Positions 3,327-51,694 of a stretch of DNA of 64,000 nucleotides are shown piece after piece; position 1 is the first letter of the stretch, and the number at the start of each line of letters is the position of its first letter. The position numbers were made by a program, and so were the translations under genes. This DNA is from an uncultured Chloroflexia bacterium (lineage in GTDB: Bacteria > Chloroflexota > Limnocylindria > Limnocylindrales > CSP1-4), in the NCBI GenBank assembly GCA_963798955.1, contig CAWCVO010000002.1, positions 157,599-221,598 of the forward strand. The letters are read 5' to 3'. The notes under the pieces were generated by a model. That model was not told where the DNA came from, did no database searches, and saw only the letters and a list, made by a program, of their open reading frames with translations.

Positions 3327-4544
3327 CTAGCGAATCTGCTGCTCGACCAGCGGAGCGATCACATCGACGTTGTTCTTGTCGACGAAGCCACCACCGGTAT
3401 TGATGAACAGGCCACTGAAGCCGTAGGTGTGAGTCAGGCAGAGCTGTTCGACGGCCTCGAAGCCCTGCAGGTACTGCTGCTGGTCGATGACCAGGCTGAC
3501 GTACCCGTCCTTGATGCCCTGGATCGTCGCGGGCGAGAGGTCGAAGCCTGCCGCGTAGACGCTACCGGGATCCATGTTGGCCGCCTGCATGTAGGTCGGG
3601 ATGGTGGATGTCAGGTTGCCGTGGTCGATGAAGATCGCCTTCAGGTCGGGATTGGCCGAGGCCATGCCGGTGAAGGTCGGAACGCCCGCCGACGGGTCGG
3701 CGTTTGTCGCGTCGTCGATCTCGAGATAGACCACGTTCATCCCCGCCGCGGTAAGCGCGTCGGTGATGCCCTTGGTGCGCTCACCACGACCGGGCTGCGC
3801 TGCGAGGCCCCACACGAACACCTTGTCGCCCGCCTGCAGGTTGCCGCGCTTGATCGCCTCGTTGGCCAGCGCCGCGCCGGCGTCGTGCAGGACGGCACCC
3901 ACGTAGCCCATGCCCGCACTGGCGTACTTGGCTTCCGCAGTGGGCAGCTCGGTGTTCATGACCGTGACCAGGATGCCCTGGCTTTCGGCCTGATCGATAA
4001 GCGGATCGAAAGCATCGTCACCGGGGTGACCCATGACCGCGATGCCATCAGGATGGGTGGCCATGGCCTCCTGGAACTGGCTGATCATCTTGGCCGGATC
4101 CCAGTCGGACCACTGGTAGGTCACGGTTGGGCCGAAGGCCGCCTCGGCCGCCTTGGCACCGTTGTAGACGACCGTCTCGAAGCCACCGCCCTGGGTTCCA
4201 CCGGGGAAGAACACGATGTTCATGCCCGAGCAGAAATTGGCACCCTGTGGGCTGCTACCGGCTGAAGAGGACGTCTCCACCGCGCTTGGCACGGTGGTCG
4301 GCGCGTTCTCGGTCGGGGTGGCCTGCGTCGTGGCGTTTGCGGTTGGATTGGCCGCCGTCGGCGACGGCGTTGGTGAGGTCGACGAGCATGCACCGAGTGG
4401 CAGCACGATCGCCACCAGGAGCGCCAGCGGCGCCCATCGCGAGCGCGCCCGGGTGCTCCCAAAGGATCCCATGGTCATGACAACGACTCCTTTGCCCTTG
4501 CGGGCGACGCGCGTCCAATTGCCGGGCGCGTTCGGCCCGATCAT
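3327..4544 (-). CDS. sugar ABC transporter substrate-binding lipoprotein
   Basis: Signal peptide with lipobox (LPLGACSS), a Thr/Pro/Ser-rich linker, then a periplasmic-binding-protein fold. The true start is probably an internal ATG (MTMGSFG…). Confidence 0.8.
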   Translation of the reverse strand: MIGPNAPGNWTRVARKGKGVVVMTMGSFGSTRARSRWAPLALLVAIVLPLGACSSTSPTPSPTAANPTANATTQATPTENAPTTVPSAVETSSSAGSSPQGANFCSGMNIVFFPGGTQGGGFETVVYNGAKAAEAAFGPTVTYQWSDWDPAKMISQFQEAMATHPDGIAVMGHPGDDAFDPLIDQAESQGILVTVMNTELPTAEAKYASAGMGYVGAVLHDAGAALANEAIKRGNLQAGDKVFVWGLAAQPGRGERTKGITDALTAAGMNVVYLEIDDATNADPSAGVPTFTGMASANPDLKAIFIDHGNLTSTIPTYMQAANMDPGSVYAAGFDLSPATIQGIKDGYVSLVIDQQQYLQGFEAVEQLCLTHTYGFSGLFINTGGGFVDKNNVDVIAPLVEQQIR

Positions 4545-7992: not shown

Positions 7993-9143
7993 GCGGCGGC
8001 CGAACTGGGCAGCAGCCCGGCACCGTTCACGGCCTCGACAACCAGGCAGCTGCCCTGGCGGCCCGTGCGTGGAGGGTAATCGGACGCGACGGCCTGGCGC
8101 AGCGACTCAACCGCGTCGTACCGCACAAGGTTGACGGTGCACCCGCCGAAGCCGGCGCCGGTCATTCGCGCTCCGACGACGCCCGGCACGGAGGTCGCGA
8201 TGTCGACCAGTGCATCGAGCTCGGCCGAACTTACGTCGTAGAGATCGCGCAGCGAGGCGTGCGACTCGGCAAACAGCCGGCCCAATGCGTCGAGATCCTC
8301 GGTTTCGAGCGCAGCCACGGCGCGAAGTACCCGTTCGTTCTCCTCGACGACGTGGCGGCACCGCCGTAGCGTCTGCTCGTCGAGCAGGTCGGATGCCGCG
8401 CCGAGCATCTCGACGGTCACGTCGCGCAACGAGGAGATGCCCCGATAGCGCGTTGCCAGCAGCCGCACGCCGCGCTCGCAGTCCTCGCGGCGCGCGTTGT
8501 ACTCGGATGTGGCAAGTCGGCGCGGCGCGTTGGTGTCAAGGACGACGATGGCGATGCTGCTTGGCAAGGCGACGGACCGATGCTCCAGGGAGCGGCAGTC
8601 CAGGAGTACCGCGGCACCAGCCTGGCCGTGAACCGCCGCGAATTGGTCCATCAGCCCGCAGGCCACCCCAACGTACTCGTTCTCGGCACGCTGAGCCAGG
8701 CGGGCGAGGTCCATGGGTGCCAACGGTGGCGGGACGGCAGAGCTGAGCGTCCATGCAGCGGCGAGCTCGAGTGCCGCGGAGGACGACAGACCCGAGCCGG
8801 TGGGGATGGTCGAGTCGACCACCGCCGCCACGGCGCGCGATGGCACGCCCGCGCGCGCCAGCCCCAGACCGACGCCGGCGACATAGTCGGTCCAGTCGCC
8901 CCGTCGAGGCCCGGGATCGCCGGCGTCGAACTCGCCGCGCGTCGCCTCCTGCAGCGACGACAGGATGACCCGGCTGTCGGTCGCCGGCCAAGAAGCAATC
9001 CAGGTTTCGAGGCTGATCGCGACCGGCAGCACCCAGCCCAGGTTGTAGTCGGTGTGCTCGCCGATCAGGTTGACCCGGCCGGGCGCGCGCACCAGGCGCA
9101 CCTGTTCCGGGGCGCCCTGCCGCGGCAGGCGCCAAGTCCGCAA
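7989..9143 (-). CDS. galK: galactokinase (GHMP kinase)
   Basis: [13 protein letters not shown] galactokinase signature and [17 protein letters not shown] motif. Confidence 0.85.
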
Positions 9144-13625: not shown

Positions 13626-19393
<5,768 letters not shown>

Positions 19394-24973: not shown

Positions 24974-26302
24974 TCAGGCCGCGGCCTCGCTCGCCTGTGG
25001 CCACTTCGCATTCAGCAGCGCACGCAGGCGATCCTGCGCCTCCGGCAGCGGGATGCGCGCGACGACCGGCTCGAGGAAGCCGAGGACGATGAACTTGCGC
25101 GCCACCTCGCGTGATATGCCGCGGCTCATCAGGTAGAAGATCTCGGTCTCGTCGATGGGCCCGACAGAGCTCGAGTGGGCCGCGCGCCGGACGTCGGGCT
25201 GGTCGATCTCGAGGCTGGGAATGGTCACCGAGCGCGCCTGTTTGGTCAGCAGCATGGCGAACTCGCCCAGGAAGCTGTCGGTGCCGTGGGCCGAGCGCTC
25301 GATCGTGATCATGCCCTTGTAGTAACCGCGCGAGCGATCCAGGAAAACGCCCTTCGACAGCAGGTCGCCGGTCGTGTCCGCGCCGATGTGGCGGGTGTAG
25401 CTCGTGGCATCGAACAGCTGCCGGCCATCACCAAAGCCGATCTCGACCTGGCGCACGCTCGAGCCGCGACCAACGAGCCGGTTGTCGATGCGGCTCTTGG
25501 ACAGTTGCCCACCGACGCTCGCCAGTGCCCAGGTCAGCTGCGCATCGCGCTCCAGCGTCGCGTGGCGATTGACGATCGACAGCGTGTTGGAGCCGAAATC
25601 CTGCTGGCCGGCAAAGCCAAGCTGGGCGCCGGGCGCCAGCGCCACCTCGGTCGTGCCCCACCACAGGCTCTGACCTTCGTCGGCGTGCGCGGCCGACGGC
25701 ACTTGTTCCTCGAGCACCTGTGCAGCCGCGTTTTCGCCGAGGCTGAGCAAGGTGCGCGTGATCAGGCCGCGCCCTGCCGCGCCGACACTCCAGCGCACCA
25801 CGATCGGCTTGTCCAGCGTGACCCCATCGGGGACGTGGATCACCAGGCCAAGCGTCGCGTGGCTGCGCGCGAACTGCGCGAACTTGTCATCCTGCGGCAG
25901 CGTCGTGCCGCCTTCGAGTGCCCTGCGCAGCAGCTCAGGCTGCGTGCGCAGCACGTTCGCGAACGTGTCGACAATCACCCCGGCGGCACGCGCCTGTGCA
26001 CTCATCGCGCGCGCCACGACACGATCCTCGGCGATCTCGATCAGCGCGGCTGCCCCCTCCGGCACTGTCTGGTCGATTTCCCCGCCATCGCCGCTCACGC
26101 GGTAGGGAGTGATGTCATTCCAGTGCGCCGCGCGCAGGTCGACGTACAGCGTGAACAGGTTGTTTGTCTCTATCGGCAGGTCCTGGTAGCGGTGAAGTGC
26201 GTCCAGACGTTCATCGAGGAGCCACTGCGGCTCCTCGAGATCGGCAGATATGGCGCGGACGAACTCCTCGCCCGCGAAGGGCAGTTTCAGTGCATCGGCC
26301 AT
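24974..26302 (-). CDS. sufD: Fe-S cluster assembly protein SufD
   Basis: 442 aa with SufB/SufD-family beta-helix sequence. Follows sufB. Confidence 0.9.
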   Translation of the reverse strand: MADALKLPFAGEEFVRAISADLEEPQWLLDERLDALHRYQDLPIETNNLFTLYVDLRAAHWNDITPYRVSGDGGEIDQTVPEGAAALIEIAEDRVVARAMSAQARAAGVIVDTFANVLRTQPELLRRALEGGTTLPQDDKFAQFARSHATLGLVIHVPDGVTLDKPIVVRWSVGAAGRGLITRTLLSLGENAAAQVLEEQVPSAAHADEGQSLWWGTTEVALAPGAQLGFAGQQDFGSNTLSIVNRHATLERDAQLTWALASVGGQLSKSRIDNRLVGRGSSVRQVEIGFGDGRQLFDATSYTRHIGADTTGDLLSKGVFLDRSRGYYKGMITIERSAHGTDSFLGEFAMLLTKQARSVTIPSLEIDQPDVRRAAHSSSVGPIDETEIFYLMSRGISREVARKFIVLGFLEPVVARIPLPEAQDRLRALLNAKWPQASEAAA

Positions 26303-26320: not shown

Positions 26321-27727
26321 TCAGCCGAGCGCGCCCTCCATCTCCAGCTTCACCAGGCGGTTGAACTCGATGGCGTATTCCATCGGCAATTCCTTGGTGA
26401 ACACCTCGAGGAAGCCCTGCACGATGAGGTTCTGCGCCTCGTTCTCCGACAGGCCACGGCTCATCAGGTAGAAGATCTGGTCCTGGCTGATCTTCCCGAC
26501 GGTGGCCTCGTGCGTCATCGTCGTGTCGTCTTCACCGATGTCGATGTAGGGGTAGGTGTCGCTACGGCTCTCGTCGTCGAGCATCAGCGCGTCGCAGCGA
26601 ACGCTGGCGACGACCCCCGTTGCGCCGGGCGCGACCTTGAGCTGGCCGCGATAGGTGGCCCGGCCGCCGTCCTTGCTTACGCTCTTGCTGACGATGCGGC
26701 TCCTGGTGTCGGGTGCCAGGTGGATGGCCTTGGCGCCGGTGTCCTGGTGCTGGCCCTTGCCGGCCACGGCAACGCTGATGATGTCGGCCGTCGCGCCGCG
26801 CCCGCGCAGGTAGATGCTGGGGTACTTGTACGTCGCCCGCGCACCGGTGTTGGCATCGATCCACTCGACCCTCGAGTTCTCGTATGCATGGGCGCGCTTG
26901 GTGACCAGGTTGTAGACGTCGTTCGACCAGTTCTGGATGGTCGTGTAGCGCACCTTGCTGTTGGCCAGCGCGATGACCTCGACGACCGCAACGTGCAGCG
27001 AGTCGGTGGCGTAGATGGGTGCCGTGCAGCCCTCGATGTAGTGCACCTTGGCGCCCTCGTCGACGACGATCAGGGTGCGCTCGAACTGGCCCGTGTTCTC
27101 GCCGTTGATGCGGAAGTATGCCTGCAGCGGCAGCGGCACATCGACGCCTTTGGGCACGTAGACGAAGCTGCCGCCCGACCACACGGCACTGTTGAGTGCA
27201 GCGAACTTGTTGTCCTCGGGCGGCACGACCGTGCCGAAGTACTTCTTGAAGATGTCGGGGTATTCCTTGAGCGCCTGGTCGGTGCCCATGAACACGACGC
27301 CGATCTTGGAGAGCTCCTCCTTGACCGAGTGGTAGACGACTTCACTGTCGTACTGTGCCCCGACACCCGAGAGGAACTTGCGCTCTGCCTCCGGAATGCC
27401 CAGCCGCTCGAAGGTAGCCTTGATCTGGTCGGGGACGTCGTCCCACGACTTCTCCTCGCGCTCGGACGGCTTCCGGTAGTACATGATCTTGTCGAAGTCG
27501 ATCCGATCGAGACCCTCCGTCCACACCGGCATTGGGCGCTTCAGGAAGTGGTCGTAGGCACGCAGCCGGAAATCGCGCATCCAATCCGGCTCCTCCTTGA
27601 TCGCGCTGATCTCCTCGACCGTCTCGCGCGTCAGTCCGCGCTTGGTCTCGGTCAGGTAGACGATCTCGTCCTTGAAGTCGAAGCGGGAGCGGTCGTTGTC
27701 GACCATCTGGCGCTGGGAGAGGGTCAT
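26321..27727 (-). CDS. sufB: Fe-S cluster assembly protein SufB
   Basis: 468 aa, strongly conserved SufB sequence (…GGSFVYVPKGV… FYLMSRGLSENEAQNLIVQGF). Confidence 0.95.
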   Translation of the reverse strand: MTLSQRQMVDNDRSRFDFKDEIVYLTETKRGLTRETVEEISAIKEEPDWMRDFRLRAYDHFLKRPMPVWTEGLDRIDFDKIMYYRKPSEREEKSWDDVPDQIKATFERLGIPEAERKFLSGVGAQYDSEVVYHSVKEELSKIGVVFMGTDQALKEYPDIFKKYFGTVVPPEDNKFAALNSAVWSGGSFVYVPKGVDVPLPLQAYFRINGENTGQFERTLIVVDEGAKVHYIEGCTAPIYATDSLHVAVVEVIALANSKVRYTTIQNWSNDVYNLVTKRAHAYENSRVEWIDANTGARATYKYPSIYLRGRGATADIISVAVAGKGQHQDTGAKAIHLAPDTRSRIVSKSVSKDGGRATYRGQLKVAPGATGVVASVRCDALMLDDESRSDTYPYIDIGEDDTTMTHEATVGKISQDQIFYLMSRGLSENEAQNLIVQGFLEVFTKELPMEYAIEFNRLVKLEMEGALG

Positions 27728-27934
27728 ATGTTCTCCGATCCGGGGTTCGTGGCAGATCCCCGTGTGTAATCCTGACCTACATTATCGGAATTCCCCGCCG
27801 AACCGTCAACGGCCTGCCTGGCAGCTGAAGCACAGGCCATGCAGCCCGACTGATCGGTGCCAACAGACCTCGCCCGAACGTCCGATGCGGTCCACTCTCG
27901 CTGGCAGTTGCGTCATGGCATTTGGAGGCTGGCG

Positions 27935-28381
27935 ATGCTTACGGTTCACCTCGCCACCGGGCGGCCCCTCGCGCGGCCGCGCTACGTCTGGCTGGGAGTG
28001 GCGATCGAGTTGCTGACCGCGATCATGGCCGTTCCGGTGGGCGTTGCCCTCGTGCTCGATCCATCCGGCAAGGGCATCGGACTGCCGACGGAGTGGATCC
28101 AGGCCTCGGTCTTCGGCAGCTACTTCGTGCCCGGACTCTACTTGTTCGTCATGAACGGCCTGGGCATGGTCGTGGCCGCTGGACTGACCGCCACCGGCCA
28201 CTGGCTGGCGCCCTGGCTGCAGGGCGTGCTGTCGGTTGGCTTGATCGTCTGGATACTCGTCCAGCTCGCGATCATGCCCGAGGTCATGTGGCTCCAGTGG
28301 GTCTTCCTGGGCGCCGGCCTTGTCCTCGGCTTCATCAACCTGTTCTGGATGCGCCGAACCGGCCAGTTGCGCCTCTGGTAG
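27935..28381 (+). CDS. hypothetical integral membrane protein
   Basis: Four predicted TM helices. ATG preceded by GGAGG with a 6-nt spacer. Confidence 0.5.
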   Translation: MLTVHLATGRPLARPRYVWLGVAIELLTAIMAVPVGVALVLDPSGKGIGLPTEWIQASVFGSYFVPGLYLFVMNGLGMVVAAGLTATGHWLAPWLQGVLSVGLIVWILVQLAIMPEVMWLQWVFLGAGLVLGFINLFWMRRTGQLRLW

Positions 28382-28389
28382 TCGCGCGG

Positions 28390-28647
28390 TCAGGCTGGTT
28401 CCGGCAACGCCTCCAGCTGCGCCACGACAACGCTGGGCTCAAGCAGGGCGGTATCGGCCAGGAGGACACGTGTCCTGGCCTCACCGAACGGTTCGAGCGC
28501 CGCCTTGATCACCTGCCGGGCACTGCAGCCGATGGCGACGCTCTCCCCGACGCGAGCAATCCAGCGCTCACCAACACGAGCCAGCCGAACGGGAAGCCCG
28601 CCCAGCGTGAACTCGATCGATGTCGTATGACTGCCCACGCGAGGCAC
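28390..28647 (-). CDS. hypothetical small protein (possibly a remnant next to the IS insertion)
   Basis: 85-aa ORF only. No motif recognised. Confidence 0.25.
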   Translation of the reverse strand: MPRVGSHTTSIEFTLGGLPVRLARVGERWIARVGESVAIGCSARQVIKAALEPFGEARTRVLLADTALLEPSVVVAQLEALPEPA

Positions 28648-28751
28648 TTTGCGCGCCGCTTGTGACAGCTAGCGTGTCACAACGCTCGCTGGACCTACCC
28701 CGCTTTCGTGGACACCTACCATCGCGGCACCGTCCGCGGGAAGGAGTCCAC

Positions 28752-29045
28752 ATGGGGAGGAGGCACACCCACTACAGCACTGAGTTCCGGGCCGAGGCGG
28801 TGAGGCTGGCCGAGACATCGGGTCAGTCGGTCCGTCAGGTCGCGCTTGATCTGGGGATCGCCAACCAGACCCTCGGGCAGTGGCTCCGTCAGGCCCACGA
28901 GCGGCCGCCGGGAGCGCCGCTCGCGGCCGACGAGCGGGCCGAGCTCGTCGAGCTGCGGCGCCGGGTGAAGGTCCTCGAGACCGAGCGCGAGATCCTGCGA
29001 AAAGCAGCCGCCTTCTTCGCTCAGGAGACCGAGCGGACCCGGTGA
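28752..29045 (+). CDS. IS3-family transposase OrfA (HTH)
   Basis: MGRRHTHYSTEFRAEAV… IS3/IS911-type OrfA with a leucine-zipper end. Confidence 0.85.
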   Translation: MGRRHTHYSTEFRAEAVRLAETSGQSVRQVALDLGIANQTLGQWLRQAHERPPGAPLAADERAELVELRRRVKVLETEREILRKAAAFFAQETERTR

Positions 29046-29926
29046 CCCGGTTCCGCTTCGTCGAGCAGGAGAAGGCGAGCTATCCGGTGCGCATCCTCTG
29101 CCGCGCCCTCGGTGTCTCCCCGAGCGGCTACTACGCCTGGCGATCACGCGCTCCCTGCGCCCGAGAATGCGCGGATGCGGAACTGGCCGCGCAGATCCGC
29201 CGCGCGCATGCCCGGAGCCGCGGGACGTACGGCGTGCCGCGCATCCACGCCGACCTCGCCGATGCCGGCTTCCACGTCTCGCGCAAGCGGGTCGCGCGGC
29301 TGATGCGGCGTGACCATCTCGCGGGCGTCCATCGCCGCCGGTTCGTGCGCACGACGATCCGCGCCGAGCACGCGGCGCCGTTCCCCGATCTCGTCAAGCG
29401 CGACTTCAGCGCCGCGGGGCCCGACCGGCTGTGGGTCGCCGACATCACGGCGCTCCCGACACGCGCCGGAGCCTGCTACCTGGCCTCGATCGTCGACGCC
29501 TGGAGCCGCCGGGTCGTCGGCTGGTCGATGGCGGGACACATGCGCACCGAGCTCGTCAGCGCGGCGCTCGACGCGGCGATCGTCCGCCGCCGACCGGGCA
29601 CCGATCTCATCCATCACTCCGACCACGGCACGCAGTACACGAGCCTCGCGTTCGGACGGCGCCTGCGCGAGTCGGGGATCGCGGCGTCGATGGGCTCGAT
29701 CGGCGACTGCTACGACAACGCGCTGGCCGAGAGCTTCTTCGCCACCTTGGAGACAGAGCTGATCGACCGCTCCGACTGGGCGACCAGGGCGGAGGCCAAG
29801 GCCGCCGTCTTCGACTACATCGAGGTCTTCTACAACCGGATCCGCCGCCACAACAGCCTCGGCAAGCTCAGTCCCGAGCAGTTCGAGGAGCGCTATCGTT
29901 CAAGGCCGGTCATCGCGGCCGGATGA
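28880..29926 (+). CDS. IS3-family transposase OrfB (DDE integrase core), expressed as OrfAB by -1 frameshift
   Basis: rve-type DDE domain (…DITALPT… HSDHGTQYTS… CYDNALAESF). The -1 frame relative to orfA and a candidate slippery site GAAAAG near 29000 are consistent with programmed frameshifting. Confidence 0.85.
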   Translation: MAPSGPRAAAGSAARGRRAGRARRAAAPGEGPRDRARDPAKSSRLLRSGDRADPVTRFRFVEQEKASYPVRILCRALGVSPSGYYAWRSRAPCARECADAELAAQIRRAHARSRGTYGVPRIHADLADAGFHVSRKRVARLMRRDHLAGVHRRRFVRTTIRAEHAAPFPDLVKRDFSAAGPDRLWVADITALPTRAGACYLASIVDAWSRRVVGWSMAGHMRTELVSAALDAAIVRRRPGTDLIHHSDHGTQYTSLAFGRRLRESGIAASMGSIGDCYDNALAESFFATLETELIDRSDWATRAEAKAAVFDYIEVFYNRIRRHNSLGKLSPEQFEERYRSRPVIAAG

Positions 29927-30144
29927 GGCATCACGTCCACGAAACCGGGGCAACTCCACCCAGGCGGCCGACTGGAAGTCGACCAAACTTCGAGACCACC
30001 TACGCACGACGTGCGTCTTAGGTTCGCCGTTTCAGGCGCGGCCGGCCGTCTGCATGCGGGCGTGGGCGTAGAGAGCGCTCAAACGTGCGCCAGTTACGCA
30101 TCTCGGGCGTAAACGGTCGCAGCAGAGTGCCTACCACGCGGCTG

Positions 30145-30310
30145 GTGCGTAAATGGCGCGTGAATCGGGGTGACGCTCGCATTGCACGCGGCCGTGCGTA
30201 GGTGGCGCGTGAATCGGGGTGACGCTCGCATTGCACGCGGGCCGTGCGTAGGTGGCGCGTGAATTGGGGTGACGCTCGCATTGCACGCGGGCCGTGCGTA
30301 GGTGGCGCGT
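30145..30310. repeat. direct tandem repeat of a 50-bp unit (about 3.3 copies plus degenerate flanking copies)
   Basis: Unit GTGCGTAGGTGGCGCGTGAATCGGGGTGACGCTCGCATTGCACGCGGGCC at 30145, 30194 and 30244, with a partial copy at 30294. Each unit contains an imperfect inverted repeat (CGCGTGAAT…ATTGCACGCG). Confidence 0.85.
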
Positions 30311-30375
30311 GAATCGGCGTCAGGCGCGCGTACCACGGGTGACGCGCGCAGCGGGCACCAAGCGCGGGGCTGGCC

Positions 30376-31164
30376 CTAGGTCCGTCGCGCGCGCAGATCC
30401 AGGAAGAGCGGCAGCCGCCGCCAACGCGAACCCGCCGGATCAGTCTCATCGCCAATCTCGAACACGCGGTCGACCGCCAGCCCCACAGTCCCCAGCAACT
30501 CGAAGTAGGTCTGCAGCGGCCGATGTTCGCTGGTGAAGGTCATCGGCAACCCATCACGCTCGATCGTATCGGCGTAGCGCGACACGTCGAGATACGAGCC
30601 GTCGATCACGAATGCAGCGTCGGGCTCGCGCGAGGCGAAGTGGCCGGCCGAGTTGATGGGATGAACGATCGCGATGCATGCCACTCCCCGATCATCCAGC
30701 ACGCGTCCCAGCTCGACGATCGCCCCCGCGAGGTCATCGACATCCTGCAGTGACATGAACGCGGTGGCCAGCGCGACCGACCCGTCGGCGAAGGGCAGCG
30801 CCGAGGCGTCAGCCAGGCGATAGTCACCGGCGGGGTCCGCGGCTCGCGCCGCGTCGAGGAGCGTTGCGGACACGTCAACGCCCACGACGTCGTAGCCCCA
30901 CGACTTCAGGTCGCGCGGCAGCCGTCCCTCGCCGCAGCCGACGTCGACGGTCAGCCCGCGCGGCGGCGGCAACAACTCGCGGAATCGGTCGCGGTGGAAA
31001 CGCCAGTAACTGTCGTGGCCGGGCGTGCGCGCCCAGCGAATCCAGTCGGCGGCCACCTCCTGCCAAGCGTCGCTCAGCCGCCCGCTGAACGGCCTGCTTT
31101 CATCCGAGGCCAAACAGGTCCCAGCAACGTTCGAGCCCGGCCAGCTCGATGTGCGGCCGTTCAC
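30376..31164 (-). CDS. class I SAM-dependent methyltransferase
   Basis: VDVGCGEG SAM-binding motif I and the rest of a methyltransferase type 11-like fold. The start is uncertain (overlaps the upstream gene). Confidence 0.8.
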   Translation of the reverse strand: MNGRTSSWPGSNVAGTCLASDESRPFSGRLSDAWQEVAADWIRWARTPGHDSYWRFHRDRFRELLPPPRGLTVDVGCGEGRLPRDLKSWGYDVVGVDVSATLLDAARAADPAGDYRLADASALPFADGSVALATAFMSLQDVDDLAGAIVELGRVLDDRGVACIAIVHPINSAGHFASREPDAAFVIDGSYLDVSRYADTIERDGLPMTFTSEHRPLQTYFELLGTVGLAVDRVFEIGDETDPAGSRWRRLPLFLDLRARRT

Positions 31165-31747
31165 GTGAGCGCCACTCGTTCGCGGTCATGCGGTAGCGGA
31201 CGATCTCGCGCGGTTCACCGCGCGGGGCCAGGACATCGATGCCGTCCGCGTGATATCCAAGCGAGCGCGACACGGCAGCCGACGCGGGATTGTCGGCAAA
31301 CGCCCCGCTGGTGGCCCACTCCGCGCCGAGTTGGTCGAAGGCAAAGCCGAGCACGGCCGAGCGCATCTCCTTGCCGATCCCCTGGCCCTGGAACTCCTGC
31401 GCCAGCCACGACCCGGTGGAGACCGTCCTGAGCTCGGCGAACTGCCGGGCGCCGATGCCCTGCGTGCCGACCAGGTGGCGGCCGTCCAGCCACACGCCCA
31501 GGTCCAGGTTCCAGTTCTCCGGCGCGAAGGTCGCGCGCGTGCTCCAGTGGTACTGCATGAAGCTGCGCTCGAAAAACGGGCTGGGCTGGTCGGTCCAGGC
31601 GAAGCCGAAGGGCATCTCGGCCGGATCGTGGATGCCGGACATGGCAAGACCGAGCAGCTCGATCAATTCGTCCTCCGTGGGGAGGCGCAGCTCGAGCCGC
31701 TCGGTCCAAATCCGCAGGTCGTAGAGCGGCCAGGGATGCCCGTCCAT
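31100..31747 (-). CDS. GNAT family N-acetyltransferase (RimJ/RimL-like)
   Basis: Acetyl-CoA binding motif QGQGIGKEM…; 215 aa. Confidence 0.8.
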   Translation of the reverse strand: MDGHPWPLYDLRIWTERLELRLPTEDELIELLGLAMSGIHDPAEMPFGFAWTDQPSPFFERSFMQYHWSTRATFAPENWNLDLGVWLDGRHLVGTQGIGARQFAELRTVSTGSWLAQEFQGQGIGKEMRSAVLGFAFDQLGAEWATSGAFADNPASAAVSRSLGYHADGIDVLAPRGEPREIVRYRMTANEWRSRERPHIELAGLERCWDLFGLG

Positions 31748-31787: not shown

Positions 31788-32531
31788 TTACTGGAGCGCC
31801 CCGATGATCGCCGCGGCCTCGTCGTCAGTCGCACTGTCGAAGAACACCAGCGTGTCGCCCAACGGGACGGCATACGACTTGGCGCCGTCGGCGTCGGTGT
31901 AGACGTAGACGTTCTTGCCACCGACATTCTGCTGGCTGACGTTGCCCGTGAGCGCGCTCTGGTCGGGGCTCAGGGCCGCCAGCTGGGCCAGGTACTGGAT
32001 CACGTTGCCGGCGTCCTGGTTGGGCGTGCGCAGCGCGCTCAGGCTGATGCTATCGGAGTTGATGACGACGTCGGCGCTGCCGAAGCTCATCGTTGCCAGC
32101 GGCAGATTGCCGAACTGACCCGCGCTGCCTTCAAGCACCGTCTGGCCACCGAAGGTGCACATCAGGTCAAGCCAGCTCTGCGAACTGACATTGGTGACCG
32201 GGTTGCCATTGACGTCCGCGGGGAAGTGGGCCTCCAGCTGCGGGTCGGGCGCGAAGCTCGGCTCGGGATTGTCGATGCTGAAGGTCGGCACGGAGTCACA
32301 TTCGTGGCCCGTCAGGCCGGCAACGCTGCTGGCCGGCTGGCTGGCCGCCGGCTGCGAGGCCGCCGGCTGCGAGGCCGCCGGCTGCGAGGCGACCGGCTGC
32401 TGCGTCGCGCCCGTAGTGTTTCCGGGAGCCTGGCTGGTGCCGGGCGACTCACTCGCGCCGGGCGACGAGCTGCACGCGGATATGACAAACAGCGCTACGG
32501 CGGCCAATACCGCCATCCTCGATCGAGACAT
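31788..32531 (-). CDS. hypothetical secreted lipoprotein with (QPAAS)n repeats
   Basis: Signal peptide plus lipobox (LFVISACSS), then a low-complexity QPAASQPAASQPAAS stretch. The ATG at 32531 was chosen over 32552. Confidence 0.6.
   Translation of the reverse strand: MSRSRMAVLAAVALFVISACSSSPGASESPGTSQAPGNTTGATQQPVASQPAASQPAASQPAASQPASSVAGLTGHECDSVPTFSIDNPEPSFAPDPQLEAHFPADVNGNPVTNVSSQSWLDLMCTFGGQTVLEGSAGQFGNLPLATMSFGSADVVINSDSISLSALRTPNQDAGNVIQYLAQLAALSPDQSALTGNVSQQNVGGKNVYVYTDADGAKSYAVPLGDTLVFFDSATDDEAAAIIGALQ
32344..32400. repeat. 15-nt tandem repeat (gccgccggctgcgag, 3 copies plus a partial copy) inside the lipoprotein gene
   Basis: Direct reading of 32341-32400. Confidence 0.6.
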
Positions 32532-32565
32532 GGGTTCCTCCTTGTGGTTCACGGCTGTTTCAGCG

Positions 32566-51618: not shown

Positions 51619-51694
51619 TGGAGCGGGAGACGGGATTCGAACCCGCGACATCTTGCTTGGGAAGCAAGCACTCTGCCAACTGAGTTACTCCCGC
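51619..51694 (-). tRNA. tRNA-Gly (anticodon CCC), CCA encoded
   Basis: The reverse complement GCGGGAGTAACTCAGTTGGCAGAGTGCTTGCTTCCCAAGCAAGATGTCGCGGGTTCGAATCCCGTCTCCCGCTCCA folds as a cloverleaf: 7-bp acceptor stem, anticodon stem CTTGC/GCAAG with loop TTCCCAA, and T-loop TTCGAAT. Confidence 0.9.

Follow-up and report, generated by a model that had tools for sequence, protein, structure and literature searches.

A probable 50-bp minisatellite of strain-variable copy number in a lineage-specific spacer of an uncultured Chloroflexota bacterium

Here we describe a tandem array of period 50 at positions 30145-30317 of a 64,000-nt stretch of DNA from an uncultured Chloroflexota bacterium (the whole stretch is hereafter called the window). 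We think it likely that the array is a local, strain-variable minisatellite (VNTR), one that would have arisen in a lineage-specific spacer under weak constraint, through slippage or unequal recombination, and that is unrelated to the IS3-family element beside it. Such an array probably has little or no function, and none that depends on its sequence; at most, it would alter the length of the DNA upstream of a conserved 85-codon ORF. As an instance of a well-known kind of feature it matters little beyond its own locus.

Structure and copy number of the array

The array lies in a non-coding spacer of 417 bp (29959-30375) between an IS3-family insertion sequence and a methyltransferase gene, as the initial annotation had placed it. 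The insertion sequence occupies 28690-29958 on the plus strand (orfA/orfB, 1269 bp, TG...CA ends), and the stop codon of the methyltransferase gene (class I, SAM-dependent; 30376-31164, minus strand) marks the other boundary of the spacer, with a GNAT acetyltransferase gene (31100-31747, minus strand) beyond it. On the far side of the insertion sequence are a perfect palindrome, TTGTGACA-N7-TGTCACAA (28660-28682), which stands 13 nt upstream of the 85-codon ORF (28390-28647, minus strand), then a membrane protein gene (27857-28381, plus strand; 148-174 aa), sufB (26321-27727, minus strand) and sufD (24974-26302, minus strand). Searches of Pfam and NCBIfam with the ORFs of the array, the 85-codon ORF and the membrane protein returned no family for any of them. 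The methyltransferase gene, the spacer and the 85-codon ORF, the gene that follows the spacer, are all read on the minus strand, so the array lies downstream of the former gene and upstream of the latter.

The nearest relatives of the methyltransferase come from metagenome-assembled genomes labelled Chloroflexia, Chloroflexota or Limnocylindria, and several related loci could be set beside the window. L001, a 119-kb ENA metagenome contig of the same species, has an identical SufB and matches the window at 98.0-98.6% identity over 21 kb; L085, a 1.7-kb Logan contig, also belongs to this species (flanks 96% identical). L006 represents a sister species with the same gene order and a homologous spacer (methyltransferase 78% and SufB 96.6% identical). 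Further relatives are L087/L005 and the more distant L014 and L088.

Tandem Repeats Finder describes the array as 3.5 copies with 95% matches and no indels (score 318), by far the strongest tandem repeat of the 64-kb window, and none of 100 dinucleotide-preserving shuffles of the window contained a match to the 50-mer unit. Both the program and direct reading bear out three near-perfect direct repeats of 49-50 bp at 30145-30293, as first noted. All units run head to tail in direct orientation, and their start-to-start spacing (49, 50 and 50 nt) equals the unit length. With unit 2 (30194-30243, 50 nt) as the reference copy, unit 1 (30145-30193, 49 nt) reads AAAT where that copy has AGGT and is one G short at the 3' end, while unit 3 (30244-30293, 50 nt) shows a single C-to-T difference at 30265. 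Degenerate copies had been reported on both sides of these three. The downstream one is a true partial unit (30294-30320), of which the first 27 nt match before the sequence diverges (80% identity over 50 nt); it retains CGGCGT, the same form as in the units of other strains, and looks like an older copy. The upstream one is weak, amounting to a 21-nt resemblance of 76% identity at 40-nt spacing. The unit start, that is its first 13-14 nt, recurs inverted at two places in the spacer: as a perfect copy, CCACCTACGCACG, at 29996-30008 within a small palindrome (ACGCACGACGTGCGT), and as a copy of the first 14 nt at 30087-30100, which reads TGCGTAACTGGCGC on the minus strand and has the same position in L001 and L006.

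Other repeats occur in the window. A 15-bp in-frame tandem repeat of 4.6 copies at 32332-32400 (L001 6715-6783) lies inside a hypothetical protein gene (31788-32552, minus strand), and the corresponding place in L006 (4709-4787) has a 21-bp repeat of 3.8 copies; 32332-32400 thus appears to be a second variable repeat near the array, this one coding. At 14725-16285 there are internal repeated segments of ~520 bp (67-71% identity), which correspond to GAF domains arranged in tandem in sensor kinase genes of very large size (18308-21407 in L001).

Comparison of strains for variable-number behaviour, as the initial annotation had proposed, gave a positive result: the array has 3.5 copies in the window and 2.3 in L001, these two being the strains in which the full copy number could be counted. 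L001 is also without ~66 nt found 3' of the array in the window, including a G+C-rich hairpin (30326-30351). In L085 there are at least two units, and the contig ends 3 nt into a third, a break at the array of the kind that short-read assemblies typically show at repeats. Units are 92-98% identical to one another within the window array and 94% within that of L001, as against 82-90% between the strains. Each strain has its own unit junction (GCGGGCC/GTGCG versus GCGCCTG/GTGCG) and its own internal variant (CGGGGT versus CGGCGT). Because the units are more alike within than between strains, and because junctions and variants are strain-specific, the sequences point to concerted evolution by repeated gain, loss or conversion of units and not to one old duplication. 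For this uncultured soil Chloroflexota species, copy number together with presence or absence of the insertion sequence offers a strain marker.

A separate difference between the two strains lies near the 3' end of the methyltransferase gene, where L001 (~8640-8670) has an extra base relative to the window (~30440-30470; gtccgccagc versus gtccccagc), so that the product called there stops early, at 222 aa. This may be either a real frameshift or a long-read homopolymer error.

The insertion sequence has inverted repeats at 28685-28713 and 29935-29963, its transposase matches the IS3 models of Pfam and NCBIfam (NCBIfam transpos_IS3, 5e-102), and it is single-copy within the window. Its insertion point, 7 bp from the palindrome, is 42 nt upstream of the 85-codon ORF, and the ORF has thereby been cut off from its native upstream spacer. 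The triplets that flank it, CGC and CCC, resemble an imperfect 3-bp target duplication. The near-perfect units begin 187 bp from its right end, in agreement with the ~190 bp given earlier, and the suggestion that they form an IS-associated structure had to be abandoned: the array lies outside the IS ends (the element stops at 29958), and both L001 and L085 carry the array while their insertion site is intact and empty (in L001, ...GTCACAACGCTCGC/AGTCGGCCGACTGG...). Passenger sequence borne by the insertion sequence is rejected on the same grounds, as IS-free strains carry the array. We take the element to be a single recent insertion, unrelated to the array.

Divergence of the spacer and origin of the repeat

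Of 178 sites aligned with L001 in the part of the spacer outside the array (29962-30141), 14 are different, and two gaps of one base each add to these, whereas the four-fold degenerate sites of seven flanking genes differ from L001 at 36 of 1294 (2.8%). The spacer has thus diverged about three times faster than these synonymous positions (odds ratio 3.0, Fisher p = 0.0016), and we thus detect no purifying selection on it; it may if anything be a hot spot. Diversifying selection or recombination, as alternatives to neutrality, could also have raised its divergence above the synonymous rate.

Homologues of the spacer (29959-30375) are present in L001, L085 and L006. In L087/L005 a spacer of similar length occupies this position, but it cannot be aligned and has no copy of the motif; in the more distant L014 and L088 it is absent altogether, and the palindrome and the small ORF come no more than about 20-40 bp after the stop codon of the upstream gene. 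From this distribution the spacer appears to be a lineage-specific and dispensable region. Its fast divergence, together with its absence from the distant relatives, speaks against either a conserved RNA or a regulatory region that is essential. Gene content beside the 85-codon ORF varies further in other relatives. The non-homologous spacer of L087/L005 has a small tandem duplication of its own (L087 896-931; GCCGCGCCTGCCACCCGC twice) and several GTGCAGG motifs, and repeats seem to form readily at this position in more than one lineage.

The array is also non-coding. A minus-strand reading frame (30094-30336) does exist across it, and the initial annotation had dismissed this as a repeat artefact, a judgement that we share. 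Three does not divide the period of 50, nor the differences between strains (50 nt and ~66 nt), which would shift the frame; no gene was called at the array in L001; and the 145-codon ORF that spans the array had no homologue among 5.8 billion proteins, a search meant also to catch any such array annotated as a gene in other genomes. We reject a coding reading for these reasons, and a pseudogene remnant was set aside for lack of protein similarity. ORFs predicted over the array should not be called genes in annotation.

The sister species suggests how the array may have begun. L006 has one unit, with 56% identity to the consensus of the window array (random 50-mers drawn from the window give P about 1e-4), and exactly 50 nt further on it has the first 12 nt, and no more, of a second unit (GTGCGCAGGTGG), the remainder being 34% identical, which is background. 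The ancestral spacer may thus have held one segment of ~50 nt bounded by a 12-nt direct repeat (GTGCGYAGGTGG), the two copies lying 50 nt apart. A segment bounded by direct repeats is a classic substrate for slipped misalignment or unequal exchange, and we find it plausible that the 12-nt repeat served as such. Misalignment of the short repeats, by replication slippage or unequal recombination, would have duplicated the segment, and later rounds of expansion, contraction and conversion would have left units that are alike within a strain and copy numbers that are unlike between strains. If so, the array offers a clean example of minisatellite growth from a 12-nt direct repeat with copies 50 nt apart.

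Folding, motif recurrence and the 85-codon ORF

An internal stem-loop had been described in each unit, and with it the prospect of a small RNA or attenuator. The stem-loop is indeed present, formed by CGCGTGAAT and ATTGCACGCG (nine pairs, one bulged C, 15-nt loop), but it folds no better than shuffled sequence. As RNA the unit reaches -18.6 kcal/mol versus a shuffle mean of -18.9 (z +0.1) and as DNA it scores z +0.4; z ranges from -0.1 to +0.5 in other registers and on the other strand, and for the whole array it is -0.09 on one strand and -0.16 on the other. Since the DNA is 68% G+C, a unit hairpin of this kind is what chance gives. About three of its nine pairs are broken without compensation in the L006 unit (a hand count from the sequence). 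A longer stem, which pairs 30087-30100 with 30146-30159, dominates the centroid fold on both strands, and in L001 all 14 of its pairs are kept on the plus strand via two G-U pairs, in a comparison of three near-identical sequences and one diverged sequence that has no statistical power.

Transcriptional signals were sought as well. Scans for sigma-70 promoters and intrinsic terminators gave 0 sites. In Rfam 15, nothing matched the array region at gathering score, and at E up to 10 the one match was a meaningless microRNA hit, mir-1909, at 18.5 bits (gathering score 80). The sole Rfam match in the window at gathering score is a single tRNA gene (51622-51694, minus strand; 69.6 bits). The hairpin at 30326-30351, on the minus strand 25 nt past the methyltransferase stop codon, has 8-bp arms (GCGCGCGT / ACGCGCGC) and is more stable than shuffles (z -2.67, 1/200); it is possibly a terminator, albeit one that has no U tract.

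An array that is transcribed and acts as RNA could be a 3' stabiliser or terminator of the methyltransferase mRNA, a leader of the 85-codon ORF or an antisense small RNA. A hairpin with nine pairs and a bulge is available to each unit, the long stem dominates the centroid folds and keeps its 14 pairs in L001, and the array sits between two genes of the same strand. Set against this are folding energies equal to those of shuffled sequence on both strands, the lack of any Rfam, promoter-like or terminator-like signal in the scans above, a unit hairpin that is not kept in L006 and a spacer that diverges fast. We therefore regard an RNA role as very unlikely, and the proposal of a small RNA or attenuator found no support.

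The main rival to a minisatellite of little or no function is that the array consists of reiterated sites for a putative DNA-binding protein that controls the 85-codon ORF, with copy number as a tuning or phase-variation switch. What recommends it is the recurrence and orientation of one motif, GTGCGTAGGTGGCGCG, which has four direct copies at 50-bp spacing and two inverted copies upstream. A spacing of 50 bp corresponds to roughly five helical turns, so that successive sites would face the same side of the helix. With up to three mismatches allowed, six copies occur in 427 nt against a shuffle mean of 1.0, and within the 64 kb the perfect motif is found in this spacer only; one inverted copy (near spacer position 139) and two direct copies (near 194 and 243) are common to the window, L001 and L006. 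The inverted unit starts at 29996-30008 and 30087-30100, whose positions recur in L001 and in part in L006, could represent a recognised motif and not drift, and a conserved small ORF of the same strand follows the spacer. The excess of motifs, however, comes mostly from the recent duplication itself, and by hand count the window and L006 agree at ~73% of motif positions, which is hardly more than across the remaining spacer. The spacer outpaces synonymous sites, no regulator gene is adjacent, the L087 spacer has no copy of the motif, and L014 and L088 have no spacer upstream of the 85-codon ORF at all, an unrelated palindrome alone being kept there. The lack of constraint weakens the case from recurrence and orientation, and we judge binding sites to be an unlikely explanation.

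The 85-codon ORF, which has 30 invariant columns across six lineages, is clearly under purifying selection; the gene caller overlooked it in L001, and it always adjoins the gene for the 148-aa membrane protein. The palindrome TTGTGACA-N7-TGTCACAA is kept in every lineage examined (L001 9047-9069, L006 7104-7126, L014 5048-5072, L087 ~781-803, L088 ~3709-3733), while the surrounding DNA has changed or been lost. Its likely role is that of an operator or 5' leader hairpin of the ORF. Because its motif and that of the array are unrelated, we rejected the array as an operator of the ORF shared with this palindrome.

A bolder version would make the whole spacer a hypervariable control region of the 85-codon ORF, in which GTGCGTAGGTGGCGCG is recognised by a protein or acts as RNA, and in which gain and loss of units and insertion of the IS3 element switch or tune expression. 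Were this so, an uncultured Chloroflexota lineage would have a contingency locus built on a minisatellite, and tuning of the ORF by the array would make the locus a rare one with long units outside the pathogens. The evidence points away from this, and we hold such a control region to be highly improbable.

Comparison with known repeat systems

The initial annotation had listed REP- or MITE-like elements among the possible identities of the array, and we looked for the unit at other loci. No second locus was found in the 64-kb window, either for the full unit with up to three mismatches or by word-7 blastn, and the 14-nt motif with up to two mismatches had only chance-level matches elsewhere in it; about 0.9 Mb of related loci yielded no further copy of the unit. 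An exact scan with a 19-base core (GTGCGTANNTGGCGCGTGAAT) gave 0 matches in 185,579 GTDB species genomes, that of the sister species included, 0 in viral contigs, and three in JGI metagenomes, all of them on unrelated low-G+C contigs without an array and thus attributable to chance; blastn of the spacer against a plasmid collection gave no match. Within its own genome the search for dispersed copies covered 64 kb, a scope in which a family of ~100 copies per genome would be missed ~1 time in 4. By the available sampling, then, the array does not appear to belong to a dispersed repeat family, and the REP/MITE-like suggestion found no support in the window, the related loci or the public collections scanned. 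The initial annotation had itself named the contrary outcome, a unit that is found only here and is invariant across strains, that is an inert local duplication; the array is indeed at a single locus in the searched scope but varies between strains, and that description holds for the most part.

REPs are imperfect palindromes of 20-40 bp that bear GTAG or CGTC as an unpaired tag at one end (PMC3733652), and REPs and BIMEs occur in high copy number (more than 100 per genome), often in alternating orientation, and are mobilised by RAYT transposases (PMC3733652, PMC2817692). The array resembles them in being extragenic, downstream of a coding region, and in that GTAG stands 5 nt before the nine-pair stem of the unit, the element spanning about 40-50 nt and being no more stable than shuffles; a GTAG a few bases 5' of an imperfect palindrome recalls the GTAG-tagged REPs (PMC3733652). 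It differs in its 50-bp unit and 15-nt loop, which fall outside the REP range of 20-40 bp (PMC3733652), in its contiguous, direct head-to-tail copies that do not alternate in orientation, and in its one locus (64 kb of the genome searched), with the core absent from the species genomes; among the genes annotated around the locus there is no RAYT transposase. Nor does it resemble a MITE, as the units abut one another with no terminal inverted repeats or target duplications around them and no dispersed copies were found. That the unit is a member of a mobile repeat family of REP/BIME or MITE type, clustered here by chance, strikes us as extremely unlikely.

With CRISPR arrays the locus shares regularly spaced direct repeats that are partly palindromic, but it has no unique spacers between its 3.5 copies and no cas genes in the annotated neighbourhood, and the earlier statement that it is not CRISPR stands. 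An iteron or centromere array was also considered and rejected, there being no rep or par gene nearby and a spacing of 50 bp being atypical.

The array has the general character of a VNTR or minisatellite, with head-to-tail units in the 10-100 bp range and a copy number that varies between strains (two strains counted). Among bacterial intergenic minisatellites, the MIRU-VNTR loci of Mycobacterium tuberculosis (PMC3635867) are the closest comparison. MIRUs, which are confined to mycobacteria, form a sequence family spread over many loci of a genome (PMC3635867), whereas the Chloroflexota unit was found at one locus only (64 kb of the genome searched) and shares no sequence with them. What the two have in common is their form and behaviour: intergenic units of tens of bp arranged head to tail in a G+C-rich genome, a copy number that varies between strains, and homogenisation of the units within the locus.
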